Shown in pieces: positions 1-43,689 of a stretch of DNA of 64,000 nt. A model generated the notes under the pieces. It had not been told where the DNA came from. It saw only the letters and a program-made list of their open reading frames with translations, and did not search any database. Both the position numbers and the translations under genes were made by a program. Positions within the stretch are counted from its first letter, which is position 1; each line of letters opens with the position of its first letter. The DNA lies in the IMG/VR virus record IMGVR_UViG_3300031555_005249; one strand, written 5' to 3'. The DNA is from a virus.

Positions 1-1
1 A

Positions 2-688
2 TTATTCAAATAGTATTGTATGGATTATAATGTAGATTCAAGAATTGTTAAAGATCAGCTCACAGAAGAACAAGCTTTTAAATATGAAGCAGAGTTAACT
101 TATTACTACAAAGAAAAAGGTGAATGTCATTGTAGTTTAGCTAAACCTGGAACTGGAGGCTACTCTTTTGTATGGACAGAGGATATGAAACAATATTGGT
201 CTAAATATAACCCAATGAAAGCTCAAGAATAGAGAGAAAGAATGTCTAAGAATAATCCTATGAAAAATCCAGAATTTGCAAAAAAAGCTGGAGATAAACA
301 TAAGCGACCTATTATAATAAACAAAACCCGATATGATGGTCTAGTTGATGCAGCAAGAGCATATGGAGTAGCAGAGACAACTGTCGTAGGATGGTGTAAA
401 AAAGGAGGCAATCCTCAAGGAGAATTATGTTATTATGAGGATGAAGGACCCAAACCATTCACTCCTAGTTTAAGTACAAAAGTTCCTATTATTGTAAATG
501 GAATATGGTATGAGAGCAAAGGAGCCGCAGCGAAAGCTATTGGTGCGCCAAATGGTTCTTGTTTCAATAGCGCGTTAAAAAATGGGATTTTATATAAAGG
601 ACAATATAAATGTGAATATGCTAATCAGCAGCCGAGCCAAGGGAATTCCAATAACAGTACCTTGGAAGGTTCAACGACTAACGAGTGA
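2..688 (+). CDS. Homing-endonuclease-like protein, 5' end lies outside the window; carries NUMOD3-type motifs (NPMKNPE); read through in-frame TAG at 11-13 and 230-232
   Basis: ORFs 20-232 and 242-688 are in the same frame, separated only by a TAG. Sequence shows repeated NPMK/NPxG NUMOD3-like motifs, typical of the C-terminal DNA-binding part of GIY-YIG or HNH homing endonucleases. Confidence 0.45.
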
Positions 689-918
689 GGATGGATACCA
701 ATAATCTCGACACGAGTACCGAACTCCTATTTAGATAGGATGAAGATATAGTCTGATCTTATAGGAAACTATAAGAAATACAAGATAAAGAGCTTGTATG
801 ATAACATAATGGTGACACTCGCGCCGCAATTGCTGATGTAAAAACTCAAGGCGTTATAAATACTAACGCTCTTGCTTCACAATTAGCTGCTTGCTGCTGC
901 GACATTGAGAAGGCTAAC

Positions 919-1239
919 ATGGAAAATCGTTTTGCCGCTCAAACTTATAACTGCAATACGCTTCAAGCTATTGACAAACTTGGTGATAGAATCATCGATT
1001 TCATGACGCAAGATAAGATCGCTTCTCTTACTGCAGAGAATCAGTCTCTTAAATTCGCGGCATCACAAGCAAATCAAAATGCATTTATCACTGCAAATCA
1101 AGAAGCTCAGACTGCAGAACTTATTCGCAGACTTTCGACTCCATGTCCCGTTCCTGCGTATGTAGTTCCTAACCCCAACTGCTGCTACGATTATCAAGTA
1201 ACTCGTAACTGCGGTTGCGGTAATTGCGTAAGCTTCTAA
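919..1239 (+). CDS. Small protein with a helical N-terminus and a Cys-rich C-terminus (7 Cys in last 35 aa: PCPVP...NCCYDYQVTRNCGCGNC)
   Basis: ORF track; first gene of a short plus-strand operon opposite to the rest of the window; composition only. Confidence 0.4.
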   Translation: MENRFAAQTYNCNTLQAIDKLGDRIIDFMTQDKIASLTAENQSLKFAASQANQNAFITANQEAQTAELIRRLSTPCPVPAYVVPNPNCCYDYQVTRNCGCGNCVSF

Positions 1240-1267
1240 TTAATTTTAAACGGAGGCTTAGATAAGA

Positions 1268-1687
1268 ATGGAAATTACAGCAAATGCTCTGCAGACGGTA
1301 GAGCTTAATCAAAATGTTCAGTTTACCGACACTGCGGTTTGCGGCAGCTGCTCCATTATGCATCGTGATGGTAGTGGTTTAGTAACTCTTCGTGGTCTTA
1401 CTAACCAATGTCGTGCGAGATTTAAGGCGTTCTTCAGCGGGAATATAGCCATTCCCGCTGACGGAACTGTTGAAGCGATCTCTCTTGCGATTGCTATTAA
1501 CGGAGAGGCTGTGGCTACAACCACAATGATCCAAACTCCAGCGGCAGTAGAAGAATTCGCTAATGTAGCTAGCGCAGTATATATTGACGTTCCTGCTAAT
1601 TGCTGCATCACAGTTAGCGTAAGAAATACTAGTACGCAAGCTATTGATGTTCAAAATGCAAACTTAATTATAGAAAGGGTGGCGTAA
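1268..1687 (+). CDS. Beta-rich 139-aa protein, weak resemblance to exosporium/TNF-like (BxpB/DUF3992-type) proteins
   Basis: ORF track; RBS GGAGG upstream; similarity judged from memory of motif spacing only. Confidence 0.35.
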   Translation: MEITANALQTVELNQNVQFTDTAVCGSCSIMHRDGSGLVTLRGLTNQCRARFKAFFSGNIAIPADGTVEAISLAIAINGEAVATTTMIQTPAAVEEFANVASAVYIDVPANCCITVSVRNTSTQAIDVQNANLIIERVA

Positions 1688-1688
1688 T

Positions 1689-2408
1689 ATGGAAAAATTA
1701 AAATAGATGAAAGAGGCGCTCGTCGGTTGTGTTCAAGGCCAGGTCTATGGCAACATGGAGAAGGTCGACGCTCAAGAGCTTGGCGCCGCCATTGATATGA
1801 TTAAGGATCTTAGTGAAGCTATCTATTATTGTACAATTACTGAGGCTATGGAGGAAGAAGGCGAAGATAAAGAAGGTAAAGGCAAGCACGGAATGATGTA
1901 TTATTCTCGTACAACTCCTATGTATCATATGCCTTATCCTGTTGAGATGTATGACCCTCGCAATAGAGAAAGATATTATTCACCAATGTATGCGCAAAGT
2001 GGCGAAAATAGTGGTGGCTATTCTAGCTCGTCTAATGGCAATAGTTCGAACTCCTCAGGTGGTAATGATGCGCGCGGAGGCGGCACTCGTGGCTACCATG
2101 AGGGAATGATTCCAGGTGAACATTATCCAATGTATAACGATGGTATGTATTCAATGTACGAACGCGGCGGTAATCGAGGATATATGGAAGCTATGAGTCG
2201 TGACCCTAAAGAAGGAAGAAGCGGCGAACGCCGCAAGATGTATATGGACGGTAAAGGTATGAAAGATAAAGCTCATCAAATGAAAGAGCTTGAATCTTAT
2301 ATGCAAGAACTTTCCAGTGATCTCACAGAGATGATTCAAGACGCATCTCCTGAAGAAAAACAACTTCTACAACAAAAGATAAGCATGCTCGCTACTAAAA
2401 TTAAATAA
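1689..2408 (+). CDS. Low-complexity Met/Tyr/Gly/Ser-rich protein (MYxxY repeats), with in-frame TAG at 1704-1706
   Basis: ATG at 1689 preceded by AAAGGGTGG RBS; the frame continues through TAG into the listed ORF 1707-2408. Confidence 0.4.
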
Positions 2409-2728
2409 TGTTTACCATTAATGGAGAACAATGGTGGATTGTTTTAGTTATGCCATACGACGTTGCGCTTTTAATGCCTGACGGTAACTTTGCTATTGGG
2501 GCGTGTAATGATGCAACTAAAACTATCTATATTAGTAACGAACTTTATGGTGAAGAGTTTGAGAAAGTTCTTTGCCATGAGTTAGTGCATGCGGCAATGT
2601 TTGCATATGATATGACTTTGGGTCATGATGAGGAAGAACTTATAGCGGAAATAATTTCGGTTTTTGGTGAAGAAATTATTGATTTAACTGATATAATGTT
2701 TGAACGAATAAGAAGAGGAAGATATTGA
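2408..2728 (+). CDS. ImmA/IrrE-family (DUF955-like) HExxH zinc metallopeptidase
   Basis: Motif ...TKTIYISNELYGEEFEKVLCHELVHA... matches the ImmA/IrrE pattern (I.IN..L......F.LAHELGH); start overlaps the previous stop (TAATG). Confidence 0.55.
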   Translation: MFTINGEQWWIVLVMPYDVALLMPDGNFAIGACNDATKTIYISNELYGEEFEKVLCHELVHAAMFAYDMTLGHDEEELIAEIISVFGEEIIDLTDIMFERIRRGRY

Positions 2729-2748
2729 GATATCTTCCTCTTTTTTAC
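2706..2748. terminator. Rho-independent terminator hairpin (aagaggaagatat-tgag-atatcttcctctt + T-run) closing the plus-strand operon and also lying downstream of the RuvC gene
   Basis: Perfect 13-bp inverted repeat followed by TTTTTT, seen in sequence. Confidence 0.6.
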
Positions 2749-3254
2749 CACTCTAAAGCAGAGCTATAATCTTTTTCTTTTTTTGGATGTAAATAAGCAT
2801 GACCAATACAAATTGCGTCTGCAATGTCGTCATTGGTTAAAGATAATCCATAAGCACGGTTTGCAAAGTCTATATCTTTCTATTTTTTCTATTCGCGCTT
2901 AGATCCACGTCCATCTTCTATTCCACATACGGAGCGCCAAGAACTAGGATAAACTAATTCAATTTCTACATTAGGATATTTATCATGAAGCTCGATATGG
3001 ATTAACGCTTGTAAATACATTAATGCTTTAAATGTATTAGTGTTTTTAGTATGATCTGGAATAACTTCTTCCATTACAATTTTTTCAATCTTTAACTATT
3101 CTACTAATGCTAGTATATTATCAACCATTTTATGGATTCGTTTATATAAATCATTTGAAGAAGCTGTAATACAAGTCTATCCAATCAACTCTTTGTCTTT
3201 AAAAATTGCCACACCTGTTGCTTTAGTTGAGGCATCTAATGCAAGTAAGTACAT
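2745..3254 (-). CDS. RuvC-like Holliday-junction resolvase, with 4 in-frame TAG codons
   Basis: Rejoined translation MYLLALDASTKATGVAIF...DDIADAICIGHAYLH carries the RuvC catalytic motifs. The listed ORF 2889-3074 is only the middle fragment. GGAGGTG RBS upstream. Confidence 0.65.
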
Positions 3255-3277
3255 ATATGCACCTCCATTCTGGTTTT

Positions 3278-3306
3278 ATTATACTATAAAATTTTATAAA
3301 AGTCAA
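3278..3306 (-). promoter_or_regulatory. Consensus sigma-70-type promoter (TTGACT-17-TATAAT) for the RuvC unit
   Basis: Minus-strand reading TTGACTtttataaaattttatagTATAAT. Confidence 0.55.
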
Positions 3307-3318
3307 AAGGAGCAGAAT

Positions 3319-3546
3319 TTACTTCTGCTCCTTGGCTTTTTGTTCTTGCTCTATAAGTAATTGATATTGTTGTAAATCTCTTTGATATTCTAATTGGACT
3401 TGATTTTGAGTTTCAATATAAATATCTTTTAATAATGCAGCGATTGTAAAAGGCGGTAGATGATAATCATTAACTCCAGCATTTACAAGATTAATAAGAT
3501 TTTGTTTTAATTGTTCGTAAGCAACAGATTGAGGTAATTGAGCCAT
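3319..3546 (-). CDS. Hypothetical protein (75 aa, Q/E-rich)
   Basis: ORF track; start overlaps dUTPase stop. Confidence 0.35.
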   Translation of the reverse strand: MAQLPQSVAYEQLKQNLINLVNAGVNDYHLPPFTIAALLKDIYIETQNQVQLEYQRDLQQYQLLIEQEQKAKEQK

Positions 3547-4046
3547 TATTTAGTTCCTGTACTACCAAATCCGCCTTCTCCGCGCGCGGTAGTTCCAATA
3601 GAATTTACCTCATTAAATAGTACTGGTATATATGGAGTAACCACGATTTGTGCAATACGTTCTCCATGTTCTACTATTTGTACTTCATTTGAAGTATTCT
3701 TAAGAGCTACTATTAGTTCTCCTCGATAATCTGAATCAATGATACCTGTTCCATTGGCTAATACAAGACCACGCTTTGTAGCCATCCCAGAACGAGGATA
3801 AACTGCGCCAAACGTGCCTTGAGGTAGCTCAATAGCAATGCCAGTAGAAATCTTACGAACTTCGCCTGGAGCAAGGGTGATACGACTTTGCAATTCAAGA
3901 TCCGCATAAAGATCCCAGCCTGCTGCGTATGTACTGCCCTGCACTGGCTCGTGCGCAGTGGGTGAAAGTTTTACATAATTTACGTGGCTACGCCACATTC
4001 CATTAGTGTCACAAGATGTTACTCCTACCATATTAAAATGCTCCAA
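3546..4046 (-). CDS. dut: dUTP pyrophosphatase (dUTPase)
   Basis: Motifs AAGWDLYA, PRSGMATK, GIIDSDYRGEL are classic trimeric dUTPase motifs. Confidence 0.9.
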   Translation of the reverse strand: MEHFNMVGVTSCDTNGMWRSHVNYVKLSPTAHEPVQGSTYAAGWDLYADLELQSRITLAPGEVRKISTGIAIELPQGTFGAVYPRSGMATKRGLVLANGTGIIDSDYRGELIVALKNTSNEVQIVEHGERIAQIVVTPYIPVLFNEVNSIGTTARGEGGFGSTGTK

Positions 4047-5257: not shown

Positions 5258-5739
5258 TAACTAATCCTTTCTGCGTATTGATTGGGAGAAGCCAATTTTA
5301 CGCCAAGTATTTCATCATAATGTGACTCAGTATTTGGAATATAGCGCCCAAATTTTATTATGATGTTTGAAAATTGTTTTAATTGAATTAATTCATTTTC
5401 AATCTCATCTTTATTATAACCTGTATAGATAATAATATCATCATTTATAGAATAACATTCTCTAAAAACAAAGATAAGATTTAACAGGTCTTCAAATGTA
5501 TCAAAAGGTTCTAGACCTTGGAAGCATATCGCGCGCGCGATAGGGTTGTTTCTATAAGCTTGTACTATTGAAGTGTTAGCAATTTCTTTATCAGGTGCGG
5601 CCACCAGTGCGCTATTTTGACACACTGGTTGGCCGCATTCACGATCGCATTTAAAACCTTTACAAATAGGCGTTTCTATTGTCATACAAGGAACTTTATA
5701 ATTTACAAAATCTTCAAATATAATTCCTTTTATTTTCAT
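5257..5739 (-). CDS. nrdG: Anaerobic ribonucleotide reductase activating protein (NrdG-like radical SAM)
   Basis: Cys cluster CKGFKCDRECGQPVC near the N-terminus, size about 160 aa, sits directly next to nrdD. Confidence 0.55.
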   Translation of the reverse strand: MKIKGIIFEDFVNYKVPCMTIETPICKGFKCDRECGQPVCQNSALVAAPDKEIANTSIVQAYRNNPIARAICFQGLEPFDTFEDLLNLIFVFRECYSINDDIIIYTGYNKDEIENELIQLKQFSNIIIKFGRYIPNTESHYDEILGVKLASPNQYAERIS

Positions 5740-8700
5740 TTATTAATAGGCTCCCATTTTCTCATTTTATATTCATTAGTTCTTTCTTTTGACCACGTCT
5801 TTATAGGGGTGTAAAAGCCAACGATACGAGTATATTCTGTTTCAACTGGTCGACCACATACTGGACAAGTGCGTCCATAGAAGGCATGGTTATTATCACA
5901 AGCTTGAATCTTGGTATTAAAAGCAAAATATGTTACTCCTGCATCAGAGATATAATTAACCATATCCCAAGCCTTATCAAAACTATCAAATGGGGCATCG
6001 ATATTGGCGTGTAGGATCGAACCTCCATTGCAATATCCATCAAACTCTGCGGCGATACGTACGCGCTCGGCAAGGGTTGTTTGTATACCAAGCGGAATAA
6101 ATTGATTACCATAAAGCGGTAAGTCAAAGATGCTCGCTTCCGGATAAAAGAATTTGTCTTTTTTCATTAGCTTTGCGGCAGCCGACTCTCCGGGGATCTA
6201 TTCAGTATTAACGTGATAATCGGCGCCTACCTCTGCAATAAATTCATCTGCCGTTTGACGTATAGTCTCAAAGATTCTTTTACCAAGCGACGAAGCATTT
6301 TCTGTATAGTAAACATTGCCAAATTCATCTGTACGAGTATAGCCAAAACGCTTCATTGTTTCATATACTCCGATAAAACCAATAGTATTATAAAGATGTT
6401 CAAAGTCGACTAACCCATTAGAAAAATTAGGTAATAGTCCTTTTTCAACATTACGACGAATAATATTACGTACACAATGTAGTGCTTGAAGATTCAAAAG
6501 TGTCAACTTCTTCAATCCACATAGATATTCAAATTCATTAGCACTATCAAGAGCGAGGCGCGCGAGGTTGATTGTAGAGACTTTAACTGAACCGACTTTT
6601 AGTGCGGTACCTCCGATACTATTAAAATAACCTAGGTCTTTAATATCACTCTTCAAACGACAACAGTTAGAAAGTGAAGTTACTGAATCATCAATAAATA
6701 GGTTACTGTCAGACCAGCGCATATTGTGTTTAACTGCCCAGCGCGCAAAATCTTCATCTTGGAATTTACCTTCTTGTTTTAGTAGAGAGATTGAAAGTAC
6801 TGGAAAAGTAAACATATTCTTGTCCCTGATATCAGCAACGGTTTCCATATACCATTTTTGGAATTCAATAATTTCTTCTTCATAGTCAATCATAAATTCT
6901 CCATTAGGGAACTCACTGCCGCCAAATAAAGCTTCGTAGTAAGGACGATCAAATACACTGGTATTAGTAAATGCAGATTGCGACCCATCGCGGACATAAG
7001 GTTGATTCACTGCGTATACAAAACGCTGGAAGTTTTGACGTGCATATTTCTCTCCATTTCCGCTACTCTTGATACCGAGATAGTCTTCTTCCATATCCTT
7101 ATGCCAAAAGTAATACATATAAGGGATGAGATTAGGAAGTCCTACGGCGCCGGAGGAACGATTAGAAGCATAGCTAATAAACTCTTTAACAAAATCAACA
7201 AAAGTAGTTAAATGCTAAGCAGGCTCAGGATTAAAAGGTGCGCCAATAAAATATAGTCCTTTTTCAGCCAGGTCTTTCAGGTCATAAGCAAAACAATTAT
7301 GAGATAGAATGTTGTTGCAAATAAAATGACCTGTTTTTGTTGTTAAGTCATATACCTCAGGGCATTCATCAATATACTCTGAGTTATCAATAACTGAGAC
7401 CCATCCATAGTTATATTCATATTGCTTGTTTTTAAAATTACCTTTACGAGTTAAAGGAATATATTTTTCAGCAATTTTAATACTTCCAATACGAGAAAAA
7501 TATTCTTCGTTCGTTAAAGTGAAGCCAATCCCAAACATTGGTAACTTTTGTTCGAAGCTTCCAGCTCGATTATATCTAAATGGAGTGCGATCTCCTGCAA
7601 AAACCCCTTTGGAATGTAAATACATACTCAATTGATGGCATAGCGTTTCTGAGGCAATACGGATATGACAATGTCTATTTTTATATCCATCAATAGTACC
7701 ATCGCCATCGATCATTCCCGCAATAATTCCATCCATAAATTCAGAAGGATAAGTCATGAAATATGATGGTAACTGCTTAGTTGCAGAAGTCTGACCTTTT
7801 AATAGTGAATTTAACCATTCTTCAAAAGGACTAACCTTTAAATAAATTTTTCTATCTCCACTTTCTGAATATGGAATATCATATTGGTCACAGATATATT
7901 TTAATTTTTCAGCTTGAGGAGAATCTAGTTTTTGAGCAATTACAAATTGACTATTCAGACTATTTCCTTCGGAAAGAGCCATACCTAATATCCATCCTGT
8001 CTCTCTATTATAAGGAATTTGATATACAATTTCTTGATGACTTTCAGAATATTTATTAGGCTGTATTGTAAAGACTCGATACTCACTAGTTACATCCTTT
8101 GCAGGAATATCTCCACAATCGGTAATAATAGGGTGATCTTCTGTTACAATTTGTGATAAACCATTTGCTAACTTGATAAAACGCATAGGTTTATTATTTG
8201 TGTGTTTAACTGCGCGAGTAATCTTAGTCCAACATTTTTCTCCAGTTTCTTCATTAATATCAAGTATCTCGATATTTTTCGGGAAAAGTGCATTTTGTTC
8301 AATAGATACATCATATTTTTCTTCTGCTTCTGTATCCATATACAAAATATTTTCATACAAATTCTTAAGTGCAAAAGTGTATTCACGATGCACCTTGTCT
8401 CTTACTGTTACAAGTTCTTCACCCTTATAGCAGTAATGTTTAAAGGTCGAGGTATCAGCATCATGCATGTAGAGCTGACCAATCCATTCGGCGCGCAACC
8501 ACTCATTTGCACGTTTAAAACCAAAATGTTTTTGCATCTCATAATGAATTTTATTATAAGCTAATAATTTTCTATGAGGTTTTGGCATTTCGTTTAAGAG
8601 AGTTACAATATCTTTTTTACTAACATTACTATTGCCATCAATACTCGCGTCAGCTACGACTTTGGTATCGATAAATGAACTAATAAAATCTGTGTAACTT

Positions 8701-8885
8701 AATTGTTCATCAGCAAATCCATTAAGCTTTGCCATTTCAGTTCCAAATTCATCTTGCATTTTGTTATAAGCAGTAACAAAATTTTTCTTTAATTTAACAT
8801 TAACTTCCATATCTCCAATGATATCCTCCTGTTGTTTGTAAAAATCCTTGACAGCATCGAGATATGTTTTCATGATGTATGCCAA
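5736..8885 (-). CDS. nrdD: Anaerobic ribonucleoside-triphosphate reductase NrdD, one continuous frame with 2 in-frame TAG (6198-6200, 7215-7217) and a LAGLIDADG intein
   Basis: Three listed ORFs (7215-8885, 6198-7118, 5736-6167) are in frame and separated only by TAG. C-terminus has the CPVCG Zn ribbon and the glycyl-radical region TRIVGFYTP. Confidence 0.8.
7296..8432 (-). mobile_element. Intein (379 aa) with LAGLIDADG homing-endonuclease domain inside NrdD
   Basis: Starts with Cys after ...TSTFKHY, ends ...ILSHN followed by Cys+1. Internal motifs LGMALSEGN and IAGMIDGDG. Confidence 0.75.
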
Positions 8886-9691: not shown

Positions 9692-9766
9692 GTCATTTTC
9701 TCCTTTTCATTTAATTTTGACATTATAATATAATTTTTATTATAATTAGTTAAATTATTTTTGACC

Positions 9767-27775: not shown

Positions 27776-28264
27776 TTATTGAGCTGTATTTATCAAATCT
27801 TTAAGTTCCGTCACAATAAGGTCAAGCGCTTCTGTCTGTTCGCGAGAGCACTGAGAAACTTTTTGTCCTTTACCAAGATATTTCTCTATGCATTGACTAA
27901 TACGAGGTTGCCAATAAGTTTTGAATGTTTCTTCGTCGCTTTGAACCGAGAGGTCTTGAATCATTGAGTTAAACTGCATCATAAGTTCATCGAAATCAAG
28001 TTCTTTTGAAACGAATGTATGCAAGTTGGCGCCAGTATCTGTGAAGTATTGAGTTCCATCCTCAGCCGCCTGTCTATCAATAGCATCTCCTATTGCATTA
28101 ACAAGAGCATTATAGTTGAAGTCAATATAATCAGGCGTATACTTAAATCTACTTCCAGCTACGAAACGAGGAGTTCCGCGCATAAAGAGTTTTGTAGATT
28201 TCTCACCAGACTCAGACTCAACAGTTCTCGCATATCCTATTATGTCCTTTAATACCCTCTTTTT
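27776..28264 (-). CDS. Sak4-like (AAA_24) recombination ATPase, exon 2
   Basis: Begins exactly after the group I intron terminal G. Sequence KKRVLKDIIGYARTVESESGEKSTKLFMRGTPRFVAGSR is remembered to resemble the AAA_24 C-terminal region. The listed ORF start is a TTG artefact. Confidence 0.5.
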   Translation of the reverse strand, partial: KKRVLKDIIGYARTVESESGEKSTKLFMRGTPRFVAGSRFKYTPDYIDFNYNALVNAIGDAIDRQAAEDGTQYFTDTGANLHTFVSKELDFDELMMQFNSMIQDLSVQSDEETFKTYWQPRISQCIEKYLGKGQKVSQCSREQTEALDLIVTELKDLINTAQ

Positions 28265-29250
28265 CAAGATATTTTAATGGGAATAGACTATATCTTCATC
28301 CATTTTAAACGGTGGATGTCATGCACTTCGATTTAAAGGATTTTCACCTACTTTTATATTATTATAAAAGCCCTACTCCTGTTGAGGAAATTTCATCCTC
28401 CAGTGGGATAGTCGTTGAACCTTCTCCTATTCGGAGCTTGGCTGCTGATTGCCCAATTTAATCAATTTTTAACATTCGCACTTAGATTTCTTTCATTCTT
28501 ATGCTGTAGTTTGATTAACTCTAAGGGGTTTCCAGCAATTCACATGATTTGCTTAATGGATTGCTCCATTAAGGGCCTTATATATTTCATATTTTCGTCT
28601 CAACCGAGAGGCCTCGGTTGAATGTTCATAAATTTTATTTAAAATTTGTACAACTGCAGCGCCTTCTTTATGAATTTGATAAGCAGAGGTTCCACAAGGA
28701 CTTACTTTATTATCAAACTCTAAAATTTCTAGCATTTGTTTTGTGCAGATCTCAGTTTGACTGACAAAACTTAAACTAGGAATATTGTTTCTATCTTCTC
28801 TAATGTGAATACTACCATCTGCATCTAGCAATCCTCTTGCAAAATCATAAATATATTCATTAGGAATGTTTTCAAGGGGAATACTAAAAATAGAGGTTTT
28901 TGCAGGTACTATATTATATTGTGCTAAATAACGTTTTAACTCTGCCGAGTTTATAGATACAGTTAAAGCATGACATCCAGTGTTATTAGTACGCTCTGTA
29001 ATGGGCGCATTAGATTCAAAGAATGCTTGTAAATTTTCAAGCTGCTCTCTATCTATATCTTTTAACTCAACTCTTACTCTGGCTTCATTTTTAGCTACAT
29101 TTCCATCTCCAGCTAAAAATCCAAGCCAATAATATTTTTCATGAGGGTCTATTTTAATGTTTGTTAAATTTAAAGGATATTTTCTCAAAAAACTTTCAAC
29201 TCCTTCTTTAAGAGAGCGAAAATATGAAATAAAAATGTTAAGCCATACGG
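28265..29250 (-). mobile_element. Group I intron (minus strand) splitting the Sak4-like gene and carrying a LAGLIDADG homing endonuclease ORF; exact 5' splice site not resolved (about 29241-29335)
   Basis: Canonical core elements in order: P AAATTGGGCAA (28449-28459), Q AATCAGCAGC (28441-28450), R GTTCAACGACTATCC (28406-28420), S AAGATATAGTC (28287-28297). Intron ends with G at 28265. A possible P10 (CTCTT with exon-2 AAGAG) is present. Confidence 0.6.
28553..29188 (-). CDS. LAGLIDADG homing endonuclease (double-motif), encoded within the group I intron
   Basis: Motifs LGFLAGDGNV and LLDADGSI; TTG start preceded by AAGGAG. Confidence 0.8.
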   Translation of the reverse strand: MRKYPLNLTNIKIDPHEKYYWLGFLAGDGNVAKNEARVRVELKDIDREQLENLQAFFESNAPITERTNNTGCHALTVSINSAELKRYLAQYNIVPAKTSIFSIPLENIPNEYIYDFARGLLDADGSIHIREDRNNIPSLSFVSQTEICTKQMLEILEFDNKVSPCGTSAYQIHKEGAAVVQILNKIYEHSTEASRLRRKYEIYKALNGAIH

Positions 29251-43614: not shown

Positions 43615-43689
43615 TGGCAGGGGAGGTAGGAATCGAACCTACGTCTGTGGTTTTAGAGACCACGGTCTTGACCTTTCGACGACTCCCCA
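43615..43689 (-). tRNA. Amber suppressor tRNA (anticodon CUA, reads UAG), class I, with U1-U72 mismatch and G73 (Gln-like identity)
   Basis: Hand-folded cloverleaf: acceptor 6 bp, D-arm, anticodon stem GTGGT/ACCAC with loop CT-CTA-AA, T-arm GTAGG-TTCGATT-CCTAC, CCA encoded. Confidence 0.8.

Follow-up and report, generated by a model that had tools for sequence, protein, structure and literature searches.

Four short plus-strand genes stand at the edge of a viral genome fragment that is otherwise read almost entirely from the minus strand, and they raise the question of whether they form a unit of their own and what their products do. They lie at positions 919–2748 of IMG/VR virus record IMGVR_UViG_3300031555_005249, a stretch of 64,000 nucleotides (nt) referred to here as the window. 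The initial annotation described them as an opposite-strand operon encoding a Cys-rich protein, a β-rich protein, a Tyr/Met/Gly-rich low-complexity protein, and an ImmA/IrrE-like metallopeptidase, denoted P1 to P4 below. This observation is real yet mis-segmented: the block comprises the 3′ end of an intron-containing gene and three genes of a bigger cassette, in a phage that uses genetic code 15. Positions 812..2728 hold the last four genes (P1 exon 2, P2, P3, and P4) of a conserved mobile accessory cassette, an uncharacterized unit of five to seven genes that is common to thousands of gut phages. The carrier is a gut phage of roughly 100–160 kb in which TAG is recoded to Gln, and the Clostridia are its probable host group.

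P1 Is Interrupted by a Group I Intron

All four plus-strand open reading frames (ORFs) exist, at 919..1239, 1268..1687, 1707..2408 (1689..2408 with TAG as sense), and 2408..2728. A megablast comparison of window 1..3600 with GenBank phages gave no match. The left side that is missing from the window (exon 1 and the 5′ part of the intron) was taken from L020, a 26-kb metagenomic contig of the same phage (2 mismatches in 4,804 nt), in which window position 1 corresponds to position 9760. The features of the locus are as follows.

L020 9021..9468, plus strand: P1 exon 1, left of the window, ending ...GAA TGC TGC T
1..811, plus strand: 3′ 811 nt of a 1,102-nt group I intron, placed by the Rfam core and intronless alleles; it begins at L020 9469, 291 nt left of the window
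1..688, plus strand (in full, L020 9647..10447): homing-endonuclease-like intron ORF of 266 residues, a single ORF under code 15
812..1239, plus strand: P1 exon 2, placed by the splice junction, intronless alleles, and phrog_16490
1268..1687, plus strand: P2, 139 residues, phrog_20016, characterized by an AlphaFold2 (AF2) model (predicted local distance difference test [pLDDT] 86.4, predicted template modeling score [pTM] 0.80) and by Foldseek against PDB and BFVD
1689..2408, plus strand: P3, 239 residues, with TAG 1704–1706 as Gln; helical N-terminal part, Y/M/G/S/R-rich core, C-terminal helix
2408..2728, plus strand: P4, a 106-residue minimal HExxH zincin, phrog_1233, with the motif HELVH and SprT-like and Peptidase_M78 scores
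2710..2745, no strand: intrinsic-terminator-like hairpin (16-bp stem, free energy −21.8 kcal/mol, z = −4.6 versus shuffles)

The first ORF, taken for a complete 106-residue Cys-rich protein, is only the 3′ exon of a 291-residue gene of family phrog_16490. It matches just the C-terminal third of that family (profile positions 162–278 of 286), its frame stays open back to 805, and homologues found by tblastn align upstream of Met-919. The C-terminal cluster credited with seven Cys has six in the stretch that was quoted, and full-length P1 has 15, six of them in the terminal PCPVPAYVVPNPNCCYDYQVTRNCGCGNCVSF.

The intronless alleles of contigs L012 and L004 are contiguous across the site and lack the 1,102 nt, with homology resuming at window 812 (GT GAC ACT...). 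Removing the intron restores the frame, giving ECC-C-DTRAAI, which agrees with the intronless protein P0121. The Rfam model RF00028 matches at 579..775 with 45.8 bits (gathering score 50, E = 1e-9; the 5′ part of the intron lies outside the window), and the P3–P9 core motifs of the intron align. The terminal exon bases GCUGCU pair with GGCAGC ten nt into the intron to form the intron helix P1, with U·G at the 5′ splice site, and the terminal G of the intron (ωG) is window position 811. The P1 gene is interrupted by a group I intron that is predicted from these elements to be self-splicing, and in the predicted ligated exons ...GAATGCTGCT is followed directly by GTGACACT....

The intron ORF has GIY-YIG-like N-terminal motifs and in-frame TAG codons at window 11–13 and 233–235; code-15 gene callers give the same 266-residue ORF in contig L016. 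No match was found in Pfam or PDB, and the endonuclease-like label comes from the motifs and from phage relatives found by tblastn, which are annotated as homing or intron-associated endonucleases. In public collections, the truncated 106-residue 3′-exon ORF is deposited as a complete protein (cluster P0130, 14 members), and the homing endonuclease is deposited as three fragments of 41, 70, and 148 residues (JGI gene calls, L014–L023).

The Block Ends a Longer Plus-Strand Region

Within the window, the genes are indeed the sole plus-strand coding block (2.4 kb versus 51 kb on the minus strand, with TAG as sense); beyond it, this no longer holds. Co-oriented genes extend leftward for more than 9 kb outside the window in L020, so that the operon is neither self-contained nor limited to four genes, and its apparent first gene is split by the intron. 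The look of an opposite-strand operon arises because the window was cut at that place. In this phage and its relatives, the cassette forms the end of a long plus-strand tail block. The co-oriented genes upstream, in L020 and in L004 (an intronless contig of 96 kb), encode a XepA-domain protein, Ala-rich fiber-like proteins, a 1,134-residue protein with a collagen repeat, a 738-residue protein matching a PHROG labeled “tail protein,” and two further cassette proteins, A and B.

Gene coupling within the block is tight. GGAGG precedes ATG 1268, ATG 1689 lies 1 nt past the P2 stop, and P3 and P4 overlap as TAATG. The block was said to be closed by a strong bidirectional terminator; a hairpin with a U-tract is present on the plus strand, whereas the minus-strand tail is weaker. 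The hairpin abuts the stop of a convergent RuvC-like gene (2745..3254, minus strand).

TAG Is Read as Glutamine

The phage reads TAG as Gln (genetic code 15), and a matching tRNA is encoded in the window.

43615..43689, minus strand: amber-suppressor tRNA with anticodon CTA (ARAGORN; Rfam tRNA, 58.9 bits)

Read-through of TAG is required by P3, the intron ORF, the RuvC-like gene (four TAG codons), NrdD, and some twenty further ORFs. Of the 56 minus-strand ORFs listed, 20 contain TAG, replication and nucleotide-metabolism genes included, which rules it out as a marker of late expression. At codon 128 of P2, L004 has TAG and the window CAA, and similar TAG/CAA swaps are seen in many other called genes of relatives.

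The recoding also fixes the start of P3. The annotated length of 239 residues is correct under code 15, and the standard code gives 233. The start was placed at 1689 (MEKLK-Q-MKE...) because L004 shares the TAG at this codon, the homologues start alike (MDKMKR or MERLKR), and the sole ribosome-binding-like sequence is found there: the Shine-Dalgarno-like GAAAGGGTGG precedes ATG 1689, and none precedes ATG 1707.

Gut phages with TAG-to-Gln recoding under code 15 have been described (bioRxiv 10.1101/2021.08.26.457843), among them the phAss-1 group (PMC10607447). The present phage shares with them TAG at Gln positions, its own tRNA-Sup(CTA), a large genome, and an origin in gut samples. In contrast to these phages, TAG codons here reach replication genes too. 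Membership of the phAss-1 lineage was rejected, as no nucleotide match and no P2, P3, or P4 protein match to phAss-1 was found in the GenBank phage set.

Standard-code gene calls, including the JGI records of the same phage, break up many of its genes. The case illustrates how such genes become fragmented in databases by standard-code calling and unrecognized introns.

The Cassette Recurs with a Fixed Gene Order

A scan with a P1 profile, one genome per species, gave 80 loci, all on contigs of metagenome-assembled genomes (MAGs), and their ORFs were clustered to establish gene order. The canonical order is (sigma-r4/GerE-type helix-turn-helix [HTH])–(C4)–A–B–P1–P2 or P2x–P3–(P4n, P4 zincin, or C4), with the following representation.

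P1: 80 of 80 loci
A: 68 of 80 loci
P3: 65 of 80 loci, plus 7 with a Bacteroides-type variant carrying DUF7841
B: 63 of 80 loci
P2: 55 of 80 loci
P2x, an alternative Cys-rich β protein: 17 of 80 loci

The P3 of the window belongs to the same family as the P3 cluster of the loci. Protein A has a Q/Y/P-rich N terminus followed by a small β domain (161 residues, phrog_21718, in the upstream block of this phage), and B is helical (75 residues; 82 in this phage); neither matches Pfam or NCBIfam. P4n is a nonenzymatic protein of 105 residues that takes the place of the zincin at the cassette end. Some cassettes are headed by a 67-residue HTH protein of the GerE family (PF00196, 27.3 bits versus a cutoff of 23.5).

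The genes do travel together, as a conserved and mobile set with a dedicated peptidase, and they recur in other phages. The order P1-P2-P3-P4 is found in MT838220, MT835516, and Dulem virus 39. In MT835477, P2x fills the slot of P2 within an otherwise unchanged order, and P1-P2 adjacency recurs among GenBank gut phages. Divergent versions centered on P1 are carried by Bacteroides phage C3_41T2LP, which was isolated on Bacteroides uniformis and whose cassette closes with a PolyVal metallopeptidase, by crAss-like cr125_1, and by C. perfringens phage CPD1; P1-P2-P3 is present in Butyrivibrio phage Ceridwen. All PHROGs involved are labeled “unknown function,” and none of the cassette families has a known role or clear homology to phage structural or regulatory families that do.

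Most loci are binned with Clostridia (Acutalibacteraceae, Oscillospiraceae, and Lachnospiraceae) and a few with Bacilli, Bacteroidaceae, or Gastranaerophilales. Contigs of 142–159 kb (L032, L047, L048, L057, L064, and L095) carry c15-(A/B)-P1-P2-P3-zincin and come from bins of Acutalibacteraceae, Oscillospiraceae, Eubacterium, Lachnospiraceae, Bacilli, and Anaeroplasmatales MAGs. These sizes are near those of the largest contigs with P2 relatives (about 130–145 kb). All six contigs could be complete phage genomes that ended up in bacterial bins, in which case hosts assigned on their basis are uncertain.

P2 Is Predicted to Be a Standalone TNF/C1q-like Jelly Roll

From its structure model, P2 is confidently predicted to be a standalone jelly roll of the tumor necrosis factor (TNF)/C1q type, resembling ExsFA and the C-terminal domain of BclA, with the domain filling the whole protein. 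The model has the ten-strand jelly-roll fold of this superfamily. The top Foldseek ranks against PDB are F-BclA, ExsFA, BxpB, the ExsF/F-Anchor complex, and BclA, with a probability of 1.00 for the fold. The resemblance to exosporium protein BxpB noted from the sequence therefore stands at the level of the fold (E = 3e-6 to ExsFA and 9e-6 to BxpB; 3e-6 to 1e-5 for 7r1m, 8d02, and 9h3d). The likeness to DUF3992/Ena proteins that was suggested along with it was not recovered: P2 has no PF13157 match (no Pfam match at E ≤ 1), and there was no Ena structure among the top fold matches. Sequence identity to ExsFA/BxpB is 7%–10%, with no match in Pfam, NCBIfam, or PDB sequences; against PDB by sequence, P2 and P4 gave chance-level matches only. 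No collagen-like GXY stalk precedes the domain, which accounts for all 139 residues.

Further fold matches are cyanophage tail-fiber tips, the Sf6 needle knob, and PRD1 P5. The leading matches in BFVD come from uncultured Sipho-, Myo-, and Podoviridae and are standalone proteins of 130–142 residues; the occurrence of such P2-like proteins in contigs with all three labels speaks against a part confined to a single tail type. Relatives of P2 amount to more than 8,000 clusters at 90% identity. Searching again with a profile built from diverse P2 sequences brought up the same close relatives, 82%–97% identical. The protein that fills the P2 slot in other loci, P2x (∼130–145 residues; e.g., L025 6872..7312 and L011 5442..5819), has a Cys-rich N terminus (CKxxCxLC) and a β-rich body. 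No homology between it and P2 could be detected, and it may have an Ena-like fold.

With exosporial proteins as the nearest solved structures of P2, might the cassette be a spore-coat or exosporium-like moron set whose products are built into the host spore surface or mimic it? GerE-family HTH proteins and the Clostridia bins of most carrier contigs are in keeping with this idea. Cys-rich P1, Tyr-rich P3, and the Gln-rich N terminus of A recall ExsY/CotY, CotC/CotG, and GerQ, respectively, in composition only. However, searches of Pfam and NCBIfam revealed no homology in sequence to coat or exosporium families, the same fold is common in phage fibers, and in several phages the cassette lies inside the head module. 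The idea is weakened mainly because cassettes occur in Bacteroides and Butyrivibrio phages: the Bacteroides uniformis phage, crAss-like phages, and phages isolated on Butyrivibrio have non-sporulating hosts, and the divergent cassettes they carry speak against any spore-specific function. A spore-surface role is considered very unlikely.

P3, P4, and a Proposed Shared Protease Slot

The low-complexity character of P3 was confirmed, with residues 56–190 containing 12% Tyr, 10% Met, 18% Gly, and 11% Ser. Its comparison with Tyr-rich spore-coat proteins of the CotC/CotG/CotU type did not hold beyond likeness in composition, as P3 has no annotation in Pfam, NCBIfam, or PHROG.

P4 was annotated as a DUF955/ImmA-like HExxH peptidase. 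The HELVH motif is there, and the family assignment is not sustained: Peptidase_M78 (PF06114/DUF955) scores 19.5 bits against a gathering threshold of 22 (E = 9e-4), and there is no NCBIfam match. The Pfam SprT-like family (PF10263) scores 25.6 bits, equal to its cutoff of 25.6, with a match that covers residues 30–76 only. H-E-x-x-H is invariant in 14 P4 homologues, and an EE pair follows 16–19 residues past the second His in nearly all full-length ones. P4 shares this combination of HExxH and a downstream acidic pair with SprT-like, Peptidase_M78, and PolyVal zincins. It differs from them in having 106 residues only, without a DNA-binding or Zn-ribbon part and without a partner repressor.

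The weak M78 match and the motif would suit an ImmA/IrrE-type regulatory protease that cleaves a repressor, with the other three genes as unrelated neighbors. Yet no XRE/ImmR-type repressor gene lies beside P4 in the window or the related loci, where its neighbors are P3 upstream and the convergent RuvC-like gene downstream. P4 always follows P3 in the conserved cassette, as in MT838220, MT835516, MT835477, and Dulem virus 39, and with 106 residues it has no counterpart of the C-terminal sensor regions found in IrrE and ImmA. In other cassettes, moreover, it is replaced by a Cys-His-Asp enzyme. Such a regulatory switch is highly improbable.

The replacing enzyme, C4, is a 121-residue family (phrog_3754; loci L034–L111, e.g., L039 4752..5117) with an invariant Asn, Asp-Cys, Arg, His, and Asp, of which Asn, Asp-Cys, His, and Asp follow the order of papain-like enzymes. 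C4 is a putative miniature papain-like peptidase or transglutaminase, as judged from this N/C/H/D pattern, since a profile search against PDB and Pfam returned nothing significant (a weak Peptidase_C23 match was seen in 2 of 21 members). The zincin is present in 13 of the 80 loci and C4 in 45, and no locus has both (Fisher p = 4.7e-6, phylogeny not corrected for). This suggests a single protease slot filled by unrelated enzymes, and P4 is read for that reason as the processing protease of the cassette rather than as a regulator.

The inclusion of a protease also fits an intracellular role, in which prion-like A, B, and P3 would form a phase-separated or fibrous matrix tethered to the membrane by P1 that organizes virion assembly or storage and is dissolved by the protease. 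Three core proteins have Q/N/Y/M/G/S/R-rich low-complexity regions flanked by short helices, and no cassette protein has a secretion signal. Composition is the sole basis for such a condensate, however; it leaves the TNF-like trimer unexplained, and the literature searched held no precedent in a tailed phage. Little probability is attached to it.

Features of P1 and the Position of the Cassette

In full-length P1, a hydrophobic segment rich in Gly and Trp at the N terminus is accompanied by two CCC motifs and long helices, and the Pro/Cys-rich tail (CPVPAYVVPNPNCCY...CGCGNC) is conserved; the best-conserved stretch of the protein is ILDFLTQDKIATLTAENQSLKFAASQAAQNAFITANQEAQTAELIRRLGRDCPVPAYVVPNPNCCY. 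The low-confidence AF2 model of a P1 relative shows a short N-terminal helix, a hydrophobic helix, two helices of ∼80 residues, and a disordered Cys/Pro tail. The family amounts to ∼2,900 clusters at 50% identity and has no match in Pfam or NCBIfam. All matches are 97–331 residues long, and no domain fusions were seen among the representatives. A double-glycine leader (YSLSDIAAVTGG) cut by a C39-like C4 was considered and dropped because the GG varies among P1 homologues.

The surroundings of the cassette vary as widely as its carriers. It lies between portal and MuF-type minor head genes and the scaffold and major capsid protein genes in at least eight phages (L001, L029, L030, L031, L052, L055, L056, and L104). 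Many prophage-like contigs have it downstream of lysin genes, often directly after an M15 or amidase lysin gene and a gene for a small transmembrane protein. It comes after the endolysin gene in Ceridwen, between endolysin and integrase in Dulem virus 33, and after holin and LysB-like genes in cr125_1. Given this shifting position, the cassette behaves like a self-contained unit that moves horizontally. Homing endonucleases or an intron are found repeatedly in or beside it, a sign of a conserved gene.

The neighboring lysis genes raise the possibility of a cell-envelope module, in which P1 is a single-pass protein in the membrane of the infected or lysogenic cell and acts there with P2 and the low-complexity proteins in superinfection exclusion, in spanin- or antiholin-like control or completion of lysis, or in cell-surface adhesion. 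The hydrophobic segment, flanked by Gly and Trp, is conserved in all P1 homologues, and the cassette can have its own HTH regulator. An N-terminal anchor followed by two helices and Cys residues recalls i-spanins of the Rz kind. Against this, the hydrophobic core of P1 spans only ∼12–14 residues (maximum KD15 1.25), the partner proteins have no signal peptide as read from their sequences, and TNF-like heads have no known role in lysis. The cassette also sits on the structural-gene strand of strictly virulent-looking large phages. As for spanins, the hosts are mostly monoderm, which makes such a role superfluous. The identity of P1 as a spanin was itself rejected: there is no lipoprotein partner, the gene here is outside any lysis cassette, and the carrier contigs are mostly binned with monoderm Clostridia. 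An envelope function is rather unlikely overall.

The head-module position speaks for another reading, in which A, B, P1, and P3 reside inside the head, are processed by the protease during head maturation, and are ejected with the DNA, with the hydrophobic P1 segment entering the host membrane at infection. The cassette has a dedicated, interchangeable protease, the Bacteroides phage version closes with a PolyVal-type metallopeptidase, and the disordered R/Y/G/S/D-rich proteins are akin to known internal proteins in composition only. However, the TNF/C1q-type trimers of all solved relatives are head or socket domains on the exterior. No cleavage sites were identified, and the head module of the present phage lacks the cassette. 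Packaged cargo thus appears unlikely.

A Proposed Accessory Fiber or Surface Decoration

Our leading reading, which is tentative, is that the cassette makes an accessory cross-linked fiber or surface decoration, with a coiled-coil stalk and a C1q-like head, that is matured by a protease. P1 would trimerize through its long helices to form the stalk and be held by its short, hydrophobic, Gly/Trp-rich N terminus. P2, from its modeled fold, would be a trimeric head or socket of the C1q/BclA type. Together, the two would build a fiber or decoration, most likely on the virion, where the head or neck is a likelier site than the tail tip. The conserved cysteines would stabilize or cross-link it, low-complexity A, B, and P3 may act as an assembly scaffold or cement, and one dedicated protease, the zincin here and the papain-like enzyme in most relatives, would mature a component.

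This reading is supported by the fold relatives of P2, by the head- and tail-module contexts, and by the precedent of ExsF docking, in which the ExsF trimer docks Pro-rich leader peptides of trimeric fibers (PMC12357932). Like Bacillus ExsFA/BxpB, P2 is a standalone protein of ∼140 residues and not the end of a collagen stalk. P1 has a conserved Pro-rich tail beside a predicted coiled coil, and as a Cys-rich partner it recalls ExsY/CotY. The differences from the Bacillus exosporium nap and F-ENA anchoring system are the following: identity is only 7%–20%, with no Pfam or hidden Markov model match, no collagen GXY repeats, and no exosporium leader motif; the genes are phage encoded and also present in phages of non-sporulating hosts; and the P1 tail does not covary with the type of P2.

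A second comparison is with viral trimeric fibers (Sf6 tail-needle knob, PRD1 P5, cyanophage A-1(L)/A4 tips, TM4 gp23, and the reovirus sigma-1 type), whose arrangement of an anchor, an α-helical trimeric stalk, and a globular head is also the one proposed here. The P1 homologues of Bacteroides and crAss-like phages are auto-annotated as “viral fiber” or “spike protein.” Unlike in these fibers, the putative stalk and head are on separate polypeptides, the N terminus of P1 is unusually hydrophobic and Gly/Trp-rich, the protein has its 15 cysteines, and the genes move as a cassette together with those for low-complexity proteins and a protease.

Several points weigh against a fiber or decoration. 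The cassette lies amid replication or early genes in Dulem virus 39, CPD1, and C3_41T2LP, and a variable position is typical of morons, not of core structural genes. It is often accompanied by a small HTH regulator of its own, and the recoding does not mark it as late, because TAG is also found in many minus-strand genes. P1 might be anchored in a membrane by its hydrophobic WWIILLFLF segment, and the model of its structure is of low confidence (pLDDT 51). The variant of the P1 tail (PNPNCC or QPPQPV) does not covary with the partner, P2 or P2x (p = 0.76), which leaves specific docking of the P1 tail to P2 unsupported. Finally, no virion proteomics was found in the literature for isolated cassette-carrying phages, the Ceridwen paper included.

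A bolder form of the accessory fiber or decoration, which we regard as quite unlikely, is a covalently cross-linked, self-assembling layer or fiber system new to tailed phages, a viral counterpart of the exosporium nap. It would consist of a Cys-rich stalk (P1), a BclA/ExsF-like trimer (P2), a Gln/Tyr-rich “cement” (A, B, and P3), and a maturation protease. Such a layer would protect or target virions in the gut and spread as a unit between phages of Clostridia and Bacteroidota, helped by homing endonucleases.

Other Intervening Elements in the Window

Two further elements were seen elsewhere in the window. A second group I intron lies at 28265..28620 on the minus strand (78.2 bits, above the Rfam gathering threshold), adjoined by an ORF with LAGLIDADG endonuclease domains (28553..29188, PF14528/PF00961) and flanked by the ORF 27776..28267. 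NrdD (5736..8885, minus strand) has 1,049 residues, against 645 in L004, with an insert of ∼390 residues between KHY and CFAYDL. Its first residue is Cys, SHN with a following Cys marks its end, and two LAGLIDADG-like motifs lie inside it; judged by the sequence alignment, it resembles an intein with a homing endonuclease.

Implications for Gut Phages

Taken one by one, the parts are familiar, namely a TNF-like head, a zincin, a group I intron, and amber recoding. As a unit, the cassette is uncharacterized, abundant, and tractable. The cluster counts of P2 and P1 place it among the more abundant unexplained gene sets of gut phage genomes. Its fixed gene order, interchangeable protease slot, exosporium-type fold, and spread over phages of two bacterial phyla offer experimental handles, and there are at least three cultured carriers, Butyrivibrio phage Ceridwen, C. 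perfringens phage CPD1, and Bacteroides phage C3_41T2LP.

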